Positions 264-57,868 of a stretch of 64,000 bases of DNA are shown here, one piece after another; within the stretch, counting starts at the first letter, position 1; each line of letters opens with the position of its first letter. Made by a program: the position numbers and the translations under genes. The notes under the pieces were generated by a model, which was not told the origin of the DNA, did no database searches, and saw only the letters and a program-made list of their open reading frames with translations. The stretch comes from a virus: the IMG/VR virus record IMGVR_UViG_3300023174_009221. The stretch is one strand, 5' to 3'.

Positions 264-336
264 TAGCGGGGGCCGGACTCGAACCGACGACCTTCAGGTT
301 ATGAGCCTGACGAGCTACCTACTGCTCTACCCCGCG
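264..336 (-). tRNA. tRNA-fMet (CAT), initiator type; CCA not encoded
   Basis: Reverse complement CGCGGGGTAGAGCAGTAGGTAGCTCGTCAGGCTCATAACCTGAAGGTCGTCGGTTCGAGTCCGGCCCCCGCTA; cloverleaf, CAT anticodon, C1:U72 mismatch. Confidence 0.95.
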
Positions 337-346
337 ATATATTAAG

Positions 347-431
347 CAGAGAAGGAGGGATTCGAACCCCCGGATCCGTAAAGATCAACGGTTTTCAAGA
401 CCGCCTCATTCGACCGCTCTGACACTTCTCT
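347..431 (-). tRNA. tRNA-Ser (TGA)
   Basis: AGAGAAG/CTTCTCT acceptor stem, G discriminator, anticodon arm GCGGT-CTTGAAA-ACCGT, long variable arm, GGTTCGAATCC T loop. Confidence 0.95.
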
Positions 432-452
432 GTAAGAACTTTAATTATATCA

Positions 453-460
453 CAAACTTA
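453..460 (-). promoter_or_regulatory. Bacteroidota-type -7 element (TAAGTTTG) upstream of the tRNAs
   Basis: Matches TAnnTTTG, about 20 nt upstream of tRNA-Ser. Confidence 0.5.
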
Positions 461-503
461 ACAAAAAGATTTAAAATAAAAAAAATAATATCAAAAAAAA
501 TCT

Positions 504-56000: not shown

Positions 56001-56944
56001 TGCAAATAAATTGCGACTGGTCTGGTTCTTTGAATCTAAATGATAGAATAAAAGTTGAATTTCAAACCGCCTCTTCACAAATCACCGGAAACCTACAAGC
56101 CGGTCCGTGGAGAGGAAATAAATTTTTAGGAGCCACTGATAGAATTAACCAAGCCCTGGTTAAATTCGAACTGCTGCCCAATTCTAATCTTACTATAAGC
56201 AACTCAGGTGTTGAAAAATCACTTGGGTTTAATATAAAAAGAACTACAAATAAAACTTTACAATATGAAAGTGATAGAGAAATATCATTTTTTACACTTA
56301 ATAACACCAACATAAACATAGAAAATAATAGGTATTCAATGATTGAATTTGATGTTATCAGACAACCTGATTCAATTACCAATCTTTTGACATTTGGAAC
56401 ACAAAGTATTGATTTACAGTTTCATACTATCGACCTCTATAACTTTACCAGTTTTGTAAATGAGGAAGGTGTTTATACAGGAGTAAGTTCTTTCCCATCA
56501 GGATACGATCCACTGATAACACCCTATACACAGAGTCTCTCTATTTACTCAGAAGGCATAGATTATAAGTATACAGGTAGTCAAAAAGTAACCGAGTATT
56601 TCTTTAATAGACCAGGGTTAGATTTAGGTCTCCTTAATTTTCAATCTTTATATAATCAAAATACAGAGGACAAAATTCATGAATTAGATAATATTAAATT
56701 CTATGAAGTTGATATGATACCGTTCTTTCAATATACAACTGAAGATTATGTAAACCAACAAATTCAAGTTCCATTTGTTGGAGTAGCCCCTGTTATTGAT
56801 TACAGCGATGAAAACTTCCAGTTTATATCAAACATCAGAATAGGTCTTGATTCAATAGGCATAGAATCAACTAATGTCAATCAATCAGGCACACTGATTT
56901 ATAACACACAACTGGCTCCTCAAACCATTTTAATCAGTCAATAA
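53051..56944 (+). CDS. Large virion protein with W-x-x-G repeats
   Basis: 1297 aa; FNSGIWENGVWNNG and WLNGAFLNGYFEGVWNNG; 1 nt after the upstream stop. Confidence 0.7.
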   Translation: MPWISQFTGLATSPNFRWDLITSVTPNILQRDSISPTQNSILRWKGSEQYRFKSKKTYIWKTEVVNFNSASQSRHLRLSPPWKPGATFSWIWNSASVSRTLPIPGETRNTLIYIDSPLTNFNSDYQVIYAATSSGMDYPSGIISQKLIESDWLIQGYSFATSSNLSNDAKYEGWRYNETGDSFEFQHSSTTDKRLPLCLSSNILSGDINTTAVNLQITFNLPPPIGVLTTNFGVTYSNFVSKYIEKDYFNLTLYSTIAANSYIDAYLFATEPVITKYTFDFDQFLKTGQKIAHFTQSGTFSFYNLTGNSYLTFVSEYKNTNIAYKNSISKIDIIGGYSTTDNNEQFVMTTSNQFLPTTSLSPINASLTATYSAVVTSNQTRHNLSGNLFGPQGATGSFQSYFSNIFGTVVNLNEINSKIGNAKFNSGIWENGVWNNGLRIDENQWQFSNVDLAVLNTSQNISWRIQISGPTASVANFEIGDSVSISNIVAIDINEERKLLKNLFTIIKKSDTFIIVEMSNNFPIRRIEKDSNNHRIIITKNVWLNGAFLNGYFEGVWNNGLFRGYPYITEMWDSHWIEGQFRGGRFHSENTRLQYVDTYYYNGYVGLTFGTTTHNFITGDEIIIDKFDKTVNSSYDGVHNVTDIIDSHLIITDIPWESNSNADPGLVKKTTNSGLIQHFEFFDENVAPKTSKSSTTLSDIWRYNSWMDITHKTQSSTNIGSNKILYNAESNDIEEVISKHRFGFGDYTALNLYGYVTDDVLSSKSQFRDIDSTVRRNYSLGTKYQIYQDFLGSISELSKPFNSNPELGNLDNFVEDGWTWSFSGNQATHSYVNRYLVEKPTTQTIFTYDVNGVAPSFGQTPNGGVPSWNAVTFTTVSENTFGLLISASTSNTEWTVKTAGQYDISLRIQSILALQAAAIMVSPNAYLSIPQNSIFGTVRILRWVNETSSWQTLKARTIKNSGGDINTGEFTPNYSSPVTYLRNVQINCDWSGSLNLNDRIKVEFQTASSQITGNLQAGPWRGNKFLGATDRINQALVKFELLPNSNLTISNSGVEKSLGFNIKRTTNKTLQYESDREISFFTLNNTNINIENNRYSMIEFDVIRQPDSITNLLTFGTQSIDLQFHTIDLYNFTSFVNEEGVYTGVSSFPSGYDPLITPYTQSLSIYSEGIDYKYTGSQKVTEYFFNRPGLDLGLLNFQSLYNQNTEDKIHELDNIKFYEVDMIPFFQYTTEDYVNQQIQVPFVGVAPVIDYSDENFQFISNIRIGLDSIGIESTNVNQSGTLIYNTQLAPQTILISQ

Positions 56945-56945
56945 A

Positions 56946-57659
56946 TTAGATCTGTTTAATTAGGAGATATCCTACTTTTCCAGCTTCATTTTTTGAATGG
57001 TGTCCCATAGATTCAAGTTTAGTTTCTTTTCCAACTAATTTGATTTTAGTAATTTTTTGTTTACCCCATATTCTTTTTTCACCTCTACAGGTTTGACACG
57101 GATTTAATCCTACTTTTCCCTTACCAAAACAAAACTGACAATCAAATCCTTCAAATTTACCAGTGCCTTCACAAAAATCACACCCATCTTCAGAATCAAA
57201 CGATTTAAGTATATTTCCAGATAAGTCTTTTATTACGATTTTAGATTTAGTGTCTTTACCTGTTCCATCGCAGCTTTTACACTTAACAAGTCTCTCATAC
57301 TCAACAGTGCCGTTAAAATCAGAACCAACGGTCAAAATTATATTATTAATCTCATTTTTTTTGAACGTTTCTAAATGCGTCAAATGTGAAGTATGGTCGT
57401 ATTCATAATTTAATTCAAATAGTTCATAGTATTCATCATAAAATCTACCCCATTTACTTCTTTTATCATATTCCTGTCTTTTTTCAGAGCAAAGCACACC
57501 ATAAGCTTCAGTCATCTGGCTGAAAATAACAGGATCTGCTGATGGGTTTTTATCAGGGTGAAATTCAAAGGAAAGCTTATAGTACGCCTTTTTAATTTCT
57601 TTTTCTTCGGCCGAGCTGTCTACACCAAGTATCGAATAATAATTAATGTTTATATCCAT
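56946..57659 (-). CDS. dnaJ: DnaJ-like co-chaperone (J domain + zinc-finger repeats)
   Basis: NYYSILGV...HPDKN; four CxxCxGxG-type repeats. Confidence 0.9.
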   Translation of the reverse strand: MDININYYSILGVDSSAEEKEIKKAYYKLSFEFHPDKNPSADPVIFSQMTEAYGVLCSEKRQEYDKRSKWGRFYDEYYELFELNYEYDHTSHLTHLETFKKNEINNIILTVGSDFNGTVEYERLVKCKSCDGTGKDTKSKIVIKDLSGNILKSFDSEDGCDFCEGTGKFEGFDCQFCFGKGKVGLNPCQTCRGEKRIWGKQKITKIKLVGKETKLESMGHHSKNEAGKVGYLLIKQI

Positions 57660-57676
57660 TAGTAGATTTGGGGGAA

Positions 57677-57868
57677 CTATTTGTTAGTTCGATATTTTTG
57701 TTCAATATAAGCTGCCTTTTTTAACTGCTCTCTTCTTTTAACAGATTTTTTTGTAAACTCTTTTCTGTCTCTTAATTCTTTAGAGACTTTATTTTTATCC
57801 CATTTTCTTTTTAGCACTTTAAGTGCTCTTTCGATTGTTTGCTTTGGTGTGATTTCTACTATAAACAT
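57677..57868 (-). CDS. rpsU: Ribosomal protein bS21
   Basis: IERALKVLKRK...KELRDRKEFTKKSVKRR...KAAY, Bacteroidota-like. Confidence 0.93.
   Translation of the reverse strand: MFIVEITPKQTIERALKVLKRKWDKNKVSKELRDRKEFTKKSVKRREQLKKAAYIEQKYRTNK

Follow-up and report, generated by a model that had tools for sequence, protein, structure and literature searches.

The 64,000-nucleotide stretch of viral DNA studied here (one strand of IMG/VR record IMGVR_UViG_3300023174_009221; the whole stretch is called the window) contains genes for an initiator-type tRNA and a neighbouring tRNA-Ser, for SmpB, for a short bS1-like protein and for bS21. All these features are real and lie at the positions given by an initial annotation, made from the sequence alone, that had joined them with an ArfA-like open reading frame (ORF) into one dispersed, temporally split toolkit for the takeover of host translation. 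We consider it likely that the window holds four separately transcribed translation components, the tRNA pair, SmpB, the bS1-like protein and bS21, scattered along the DNA, each of which would independently supplement or replace a part of the host machinery. The idea of a single linked toolkit did not hold: the core genes are transcribed separately and are interspersed with unrelated genes, and two complete relatives show synteny over this region. The outcome is mainly that the published Mahaphage-type translation repertoire extends to another freshwater member, which by itself changes little.

The window is a piece of a Mahaphage/Lak-type megaphage from freshwater. Megablast of 19.7 kb of the window against phage records gave no match. 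The best tblastn matches of the bS1-like protein were to LR745206 (634 kb, 66%) and LR756502 (642 kb, 62%); next came four more uncultured phages of 462–735 kb and the Lak phages of Prevotella. LR745206 and LR756502, the nearest named relatives, both come from the work of Al-Shayeb et al. 2020, the main text of which predicts that the largest members of the Mahaphage clade infect Bacteroidetes (PMC7162821). Every sequencing run with this stretch comes from a freshwater or lake metagenome; the runs belong to eight studies dated 2011–2025, and four of the entries may be the source of the DNA. Ribosomes of Bacteroidota ignore Shine-Dalgarno (SD) sequences, and an SD-like core precedes none of 58 genes (0/58). 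Together with promoters of the Bacteroidota type and the Tyr54 kept in the phage bS21, this points to a host that is probably a member of the Bacteroidota.

The translation genes

ARAGORN and Rfam agree on two minus-strand tRNA genes, a tRNA-Met with a CAU anticodon (263/264–336, 63.6 bits) and a tRNA-Ser with a UGA anticodon (346/347–431, 52.8 bits), in accordance with the initial annotation. Direct reading of the tRNA-Met revealed a C1·U72 mismatch, A11:U24 and an anticodon stem composed of A29:U41, G30:C40 and G31:C39. The 1:72 mismatch, A11:U24 and the G30:C40/G31:C39 pairs mark it as initiator-type, although only two of the three consecutive G:C pairs of the initiator anticodon stem are present, position 29:41 being A:U. 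Initiator tRNA copies were found in four of five near-complete relatives with 78–93% identity (four of the five copies at 82–93%). In an alignment of four full-length relative copies position 1:72 is always mismatched (C·U or U·U), while A11, U24 and the AGG/CCU stem are invariant. Relative copies are located at L055:1501–1574 (−), L051:1501–1573 (+), L053:1500–1572 (+) and L052:1501–1574 (−). The A29:U41 variant was considered as a phage peculiarity, an idea that was dropped once the same stem-loop pattern turned up widely among bacterial genomes: at least 120 bacterial contigs have it, Prevotella and many Alphaproteobacteria among them, counted irrespective of the initiator identity of the matches.

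The tRNA pair is preceded, 21 nt upstream, by a −7 box of the Bacteroidota type, TAAGTTTG (453–460, minus strand; read directly), with no clear −33 TTTG. The relative G001 contains two initiator-type tRNA-Met copies. The copy syntenic with that of the window lies behind host-type boxes; the boxes of the syntenic tRNAs are TATCTTTG, one of them with TTTG 20 nt upstream. The other copy heads a tRNA array 20 nt behind a phage motif, TTTTTATATATAC, and a copy with a phage promoter is also present in LR745206 and G002.

The smpB gene (25064–25498, minus strand) encodes a full-length protein of 144 amino acids and is genuine, as annotated. The product matches Pfam SmpB with an E-value of 4e-52, covers profile positions 2–139 of 143 of PF01668 and can be aligned over its whole length with SmpBs of solved structure, the GKK-x-aromatic-DKR tail hinge included. 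In the tail, GKK-L-W-DKR occupies residues 121–128 and is followed by 16 residues, with both the hinge glycine and the DKR motif in place, and the functional SmpB of Thermus is equally long (144 amino acids). Of 841 homologues, some on contigs of up to 522 kb, the best 120 listed include 109 of exactly 144 amino acids. SmpB is encoded in all five near-complete relatives.

A pattern scan located a host-type promoter, TTTG-N19-TATCTTTG, before smpB (25504–25534, minus strand); 5 nt separate its −7 box from the ATG. In six of six phages compared this box stands 4–5 nt from the ATG, and since the distance is kept, the promoter is probably functional and the message almost leaderless; from the position of the box, the smpB message should thus carry hardly any leader.

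No tmRNA was found in the window by ARAGORN or Rfam. In the five near-complete relatives all matches to Rfam RF00023 were below threshold, and the eight best, which were examined, sit in tRNA arrays. ARAGORN analysis of the whole reassembled G001 (435.8 kb) gave 28 tRNAs and no tmRNA. Several relatives carry, ~2 kb from smpB, a structured non-coding RNA of ~340–390 nt that is flanked by a YqeY-like gene and by the homologue of a 543-amino-acid gene of the window (L047:4815–5200 in G001, L001:865–1260 in LR745206, L048:4885–5285 (−) and L049:3680–4070 (−)). It is 71–78% identical between phages, compared to 31–40% for the adjacent 543-amino-acid protein against that of the window, and contains several helices with compensatory changes, with G·U pairs fixing the strand. 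As a hidden tmRNA this RNA was rejected: Rfam returned nothing at E up to 1, ARAGORN did not call a tmRNA, no tRNA-like end was seen, and the RNA is absent both from the window and from the closest relatives of the window phage.

The bS1-like protein (358 amino acids; 36618–37694, plus strand) was identified by Pfam S1 domains with an E-value of 1e-22. It consists of N-terminal helices and four OB domains (residues ~48–110, 131–197, 218–283 and 296–357). Cellular bS1 is longer (557 amino acids in E. coli, 591 in Flavobacterium johnsoniae); the phage protein is collinear with residues 4–340 of the E. coli protein, i.e. domains 1–4, and with residues 39–369 of that of F. johnsoniae, but lacks domains 5–6 and therefore does not have the six-domain architecture of Gram-negative bS1. 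An AlphaFold2 model (16 relatives, pLDDT 77.5) has four beta-barrels after N-terminal helices, and a Foldseek search with this model returned ribosome-bound E. coli bS1 as the top match (9gut_B, E 3e-22). The alignment, the model and Foldseek thus bear out the description of this gene as having about four domains. In E. coli bS1, domains 1–2 bind the ribosome and domains 3–4 are part of the mRNA-binding region. Proteins 57–78% identical to the phage protein were found in 20 IMG/VR loci on contigs of up to 476 kb, and the protein is present in all five near-complete relatives.

The E. coli protein is anchored on uS2 by Phe5 and Phe9, both of which are essential, and loss of Phe5 abolishes binding (PMC4288201). 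In the phage protein Phe9 has its counterpart in Tyr35, and neither Tyr35 nor Leu34 varies among 16 relatives. The N-terminus (window positions 36618–36737, plus strand) contains two helix motifs that resemble the uS2-anchoring helix of E. coli bS1, L-E-F-L-F-E-E at residues 10–16 and L-S-N-L-Y-E-K at residues 31–37.

The bS1-like gene is the last of a five-gene operon (28252–37694, plus strand) whose other products are 1053, 1353, 229 and 121 amino acids long. The operon is complete in 20 of 20 related loci, and the bS1-like gene is always the last and the best conserved of the five. The genes abut or are separated by at most 56 nt, and no hairpin was seen in the 56-nt gap before the bS1-like gene. 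A motif scan placed the phage promoter motif TAATATATA at the head of the operon (28222–28230, plus strand), and TTAATATATA is found ~20–24 nt before the operon ATG in about 18 related loci with a readable operon head. Directly 3′ of the bS1-like stop codon a GC-rich hairpin followed by a T run was read (37697–37727, plus strand), which is likely the operon terminator; one RNA-library contig ends at 37691, a weak hint in the same direction. Comparison of the giant proteins of the operon with PHROGs and Pfam returned unknown function only, and a ‘tail fiber’ lead from a protein atlas (0.83) was below threshold and not used as evidence.

The fourth component, bS21 (63 amino acids; 57677–57868, minus strand), was confirmed by a match to Pfam Ribosomal_S21 (PF01165) with an E-value of 1.3e-11 and by a gap-free alignment of residues 1–56 with its best solved match, the 64-amino-acid bS21 of F. 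johnsoniae (7jil_z; PMC7797042). The protein has no N-terminal extension and is of the Bacteroidota type, with the signature Tyr54 and also Ile55 kept. In the F. johnsoniae ribosome Tyr54 stacks on A1534 and helps to sequester the anti-SD tail (PMC7797042). Two further papers describe that Flavobacterium ribosomes without bS21 up-regulate rpsU through its strong SD (PMC9976891, PMC13000453). Unlike rpsU, the phage gene is not preceded by a strong SD and, as we infer, should escape such SD-dependent autoregulation. All five near-complete relatives encode bS21. A variant of the phage motif, CAATATATA, lies 18 nt upstream of its start codon (57887–57895, minus strand). On the same strand, 17 nt downstream of bS21, is a DnaJ-like gene with a J domain and a zinc-finger region (56946–57659, minus strand; Pfam DnaJ, E 1.9e-18). 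In LR745206 DnaJ is likewise downstream of bS21 on the same strand, ~450 nt away.

Promoter classes and conservation

Promoters recognized by the Bacteroidota primary sigma factor were defined as a −33 TTTG and a −7 TAnnTTTG element 19–21 nt apart. The pattern TTTG-N18–21-TAnnTTTG occurs 9 times in the window against 3.4 expected, and four of these occurrences precede minus-strand genes. Before smpB both elements are present; before the tRNA pair, only the −7 box is. A second motif, WAATATATA, was observed 20 times against 6.4 expected, 4–7 nt or 15–24 nt upstream of start codons; the motif before bS21 falls in the second spacing class, and the bS1 operon is headed by a clean copy. Since the same motif precedes tRNA genes in relatives, it is a signal for transcription and not for translation.

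The initial annotation had split the genes in time by promoter, with smpB, the ArfA-like ORF and the tRNAs behind host-type promoters and bS21 behind a variant of the phage motif. Part of this stands: smpB and the tRNA pair do follow −7 boxes of the Bacteroidota type and bS21 does follow the variant, but the bS21 motif is poorly conserved. The initiator tRNA as an exclusively ‘early’ item had to be given up, since the second initiator-tRNA copy of the relatives uses a phage-type promoter. Temporal separation is read throughout from promoter class. Two metatranscriptome libraries hold the region as contigs, at a depth of ~45–50 in one compared to ~41 in a DNA run. With depth so close to that of DNA, carry-over of DNA is possible, and these contigs show neither transcription nor its timing; nor can they give the strand or the starts and ends of transcripts.

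Upstream of smpB lies a minus-strand block (25551–28199) that contains an 83-amino-acid ORF and, by Pfam, an ECF-like sigma factor with regions 2 and 4 (27194–27793), a nucleotidyltransferase-like protein of 420 amino acids and a thioredoxin. The 83-amino-acid ORF heads the block behind a promoter of the pattern TTTG-N19-TATATTTG (28169–28199, minus strand). Because one host-type promoter heads the block and another immediately precedes smpB, the host polymerase should be able to read the block on entry. The gene order of the block is the same in LR745206, LR756502 and L078–L080. The phage sigma factor is a candidate reader of the TAATATATA promoter class, to which the bS1 operon and probably also bS21-DnaJ belong.

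T4 late promoters consist of TATAAATA at −10 with no −35 element. The window motif resembles them in being a single A/T-rich box near the start site of many phage genes, with a protein of the sigma family encoded nearby. It differs in sequence, the sigma factor of the window has regions 2 and 4, and its link to the motif is hypothetical.

Two side observations concern the block. The 420-amino-acid protein (25908–27170, minus strand), always located between the sigma factor and thioredoxin-smpB, has only weak matches to NTP_transf_6 (nucleotidyltransferase) and Gad2. The leader of the sigma-factor gene (27794–27880, minus strand) has an unusually high GC content and a direct repeat, TAAACGGCAAAT, the second copy of which abuts the start codon.

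The co-occurrence of the translation genes in relatives was borne out: SmpB, bS21 and bS1 are encoded in five of the five near-complete relatives, and the initiator tRNA in four. The genes also cover initiation (initiator tRNA, bS1, bS21) and rescue (SmpB), as had been proposed. LR745206 shares the order 543-amino-acid gene, smpB, thioredoxin, 420-amino-acid protein, sigma factor, two giants and bS1, continuing to DnaJ, bS21 and SbcC; LR756502 shares the gene order over the part compared, and its bS21 lies just beyond that part. A search for tmRNA, release factors and initiation factors, suggested by the initial annotation for the rest of the genome, was run in the five relatives with a mixed result. 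No tmRNA, no ArfA and no member of the IF1 family were found; IF3 is present only in G001, and an ArfB-type GGQ protein of 138 amino acids and a translational GTPase of 665–670 amino acids are present only in LR745206 and LR756502. The ArfB-type protein (L042:1423–1839 (−) in LR745206; L041 in LR756502) is a stand-alone RF-1 domain with the GGQ motif and a basic C-terminus.

According to the main text of Al-Shayeb et al., huge phages carry S1, S21, IF1, IF3, RF1/2, RRF, tmRNA, SmpB and tRNAs, a repertoire proposed to redirect translation (PMC7162821). The window phage belongs to the same phage family and has the same gene set as the Mahaphages of that study, but is a different member, with no megablast match and 62–78% protein identity. 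Chen et al. 2022 described freshwater phages that have Bacteroidetes-like bS21 and predicted Bacteroidetes hosts, and proposed that this bS21 enters ribosomes late in infection (PMC9723584). The window phage shares habitat, predicted host and bS21 type with these phages; they are, however, at most 331 kb long and carry bS21 in a block of structural genes, whereas bS21 of the window is located between SbcC-like and DnaJ-like genes. The takeover idea of the initial annotation is thus the published one, applied to a further member of the clade. Promoter classes of individual genes, the five-gene bS1 operon and clade-wide SmpB without tmRNA in five relatives are not stated in the main text of PMC7162821.

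Proposed roles and competing explanations

Identities, conservation and promoter motifs come from the comparisons described above; the roles proposed below draw on established knowledge of the cellular counterparts, with entry into ribosomes and binding of host tmRNA being predictions. SmpB would be made by host RNA polymerase and, since no phage tmRNA was seen in the relatives, would use host tmRNA to free ribosomes stalled on broken messages. Its simplest role may be to provide more capacity for trans-translation while host messages break. The extra initiator tRNA would favour initiation on the SD-less, often near-leaderless messages of the phage. Because Tyr54 is kept, phage bS21 should maintain rather than relieve occlusion of the anti-SD and would keep ribosomes ‘blind’ to SD; as a strong SD is missing from its gene, its supply would bypass the SD-based rpsU feedback of the host. 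The short bS1 would be a competitor for the bS1 site and would bring in A/U-rich messages of the phage. Since bS1 of E. coli is dispensable for leaderless messages (PMC4288201), the phage protein may matter mainly for internal cistrons with A/U-rich leaders. The details relevant to how a phage might steer Bacteroidota ribosomes are the promoter class of each gene, the predicted near-leaderless messages and the conservation of SmpB without tmRNA in relatives. These are hypotheses that can be tested in F. johnsoniae, with existing ribosome structures and bS21 genetics.

Several observations weigh against this picture. The N-terminal 101 residues of the bS1-like protein (domain 1) gave no bS1 match when compared alone with solved structures, and the uS2 anchor is only motif-like, Leu31 replacing Phe5 of E. 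coli. Assignment of the bS1 operon to the late phase is a guess, since the other operon proteins have no known function. The motif before bS21 is not cleanly conserved, and the GAGATATAAAAAT that relatives carry there makes the assignment of bS21 to the phage-promoter class weaker. The phage-type promoter of an initiator-tRNA copy in the relatives blurs the split between early and late. Finally, the window is a part of a genome, and a tmRNA or further factors could lie elsewhere in that genome.

Some of the same evidence would suit a coordinated and temporally staged programme of interdependent parts, in which rescue and tRNAs are supplied early from host promoters and ribosomes are re-equipped late from phage promoters. 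The promoter classes do separate smpB from the bS1 operon, with both signals conserved in relatives, the phage sigma factor encoded in the host-promoter block could drive the TAATATATA class, and three of the items occur in every near-complete relative, the initiator tRNA in all but one. We consider such a programme unlikely. Its items are scattered among unrelated genes, and the broad synteny of the region with the relatives explains their co-occurrence by vertical inheritance. The ArfA-like ORF is not conserved, one initiator-tRNA copy of the relatives is on a phage promoter, IF3, the ArfB-like protein and the translational GTPase come and go among relatives, and the timing derives from promoter class only. 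A fuller version, two-stage reprogramming of Bacteroidota ribosomes, in which an early SmpB with a near-leaderless message commandeers host tmRNA as host messages are destroyed and bS1, Tyr54-bearing bS21 and initiator tRNA later re-equip ribosomes for SD-less, near-leaderless phage messages, strikes us as quite improbable. Single components could also act differently from what is proposed for independent supplementation of host parts. It is conceivable, if doubtful, that the bS1-like protein is not ribosomal but an S1-domain RNA-binding protein that works for its operon or in some other process of the phage, for instance as RNA chaperone or as cofactor of a phage enzyme; host S1 is a cofactor of Q-beta replicase. 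Its constant place at the end of an operon that also encodes two giant proteins without known function would fit this, as would a domain 1 that alone is unlike any solved bS1, the leucine at the Phe5 position and the missing domains 5–6. Full-length collinearity with E. coli bS1 domains 1–4 and F. johnsoniae bS1 39–369, the first rank of ribosome-bound bS1 in Foldseek and the invariant Leu34 and aromatic Tyr35, the latter at the Phe9 position, argue for a ribosomal protein. We find it very unlikely that the phage SmpB is directed against the host, sequestering tmRNA or filling empty A sites without tagging and so blocking a host response that depends on trans-translation: the relatives indeed yielded no phage tmRNA and a host-type promoter suggests early expression, but the tail hinge and DKR motif are intact, the length is that of a functional SmpB, and the sequence bears no sign of loss of function.

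The least probable of these alternatives concerns the 37-amino-acid ‘ArfA-like’ ORF (P0001; 23233–23346, minus strand), which exists but was not accepted in the kit, and which we regard as having only a slight chance of being a real ArfA-type rescue factor. BLASTP aligned it with residues 26–48 of E. coli ArfA, the basic tail, with 11 of 23 identities (pairwise E 7e-5); the local score of 50 was reached by none of 2000 shuffles (0/2000) and is the best among 1089 frames of the window. The ORF has its own TATCTTTG box 20 nt upstream, and its basic stretch EK-x-KK...Y-x-RK-x-KH is reminiscent of the tail with which ArfA enters the mRNA channel. Yet it is much shorter than ArfA, with only 15 residues ahead of the tail, and the inferred host belongs to a different phylum. 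It has no match to Pfam ArfA (PF03889) at E up to 10 and none to solved structures, hhalign against ArfA gave a probability of 4%, and no PF03889 match was found in the five near-complete relatives at E up to 1. L078/L079 encode an SmpB with 89% identity; there the flanks can be aligned cleanly, but a ~150-nt segment containing the ORF and its TATCTTTG box is absent; at the syntenic sites of LR745206 and G001 a YqeY-like gene takes its place. This comparison speaks most strongly against the rescue-factor claim, and we treat the ORF as a putative lineage-specific insert outside the kit rather than a conserved rescue factor. It also matches DUF7230 (E 2e-4, below the family cut-off), a family of which no mention was found in the papers searched.

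Related phages encode, at non-syntenic sites, a family of proteins of 59–62 amino acids with the tail W-x(3-4)-K-x-H-K-S-x-K-x-Y-T-R-K-x-K-H/Y-K (L044:518–697 (−), L043:1402–1581 (+) and L045:1408–1596 (+)). The 37-amino-acid ORF aligns with their C-terminal half and is possibly a fragment of this small basic-tail family. The scores of the family against ArfA are within noise, which further argues against an ArfA-type rescue factor.

Other genes of the window

The window has a G+C content of ~30% and is densely coded on both strands. Its remaining content is typical of huge phages and includes giant proteins of unknown function, a collagen-repeat protein, DNA methylases and peptidases; TnpB, an intein-bearing flavodoxin-like gene, an SbcC-like ATPase and the sigma factor described above are also encoded. 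According to Pfam, the flavodoxin/FMN-reductase-like gene at 504–2450 (minus strand) is split by an intein with a LAGLIDADG endonuclease domain. The TnpB encoded at 44821–46026 (minus strand) is complete, being composed of OrfB_IS605, a Cas12f-like TNB domain and a helix-turn-helix (HTH). It has no homologue at the matching position in LR745206 or LR756502, and the phage motif TAATATATA lies 5 nt before its start.

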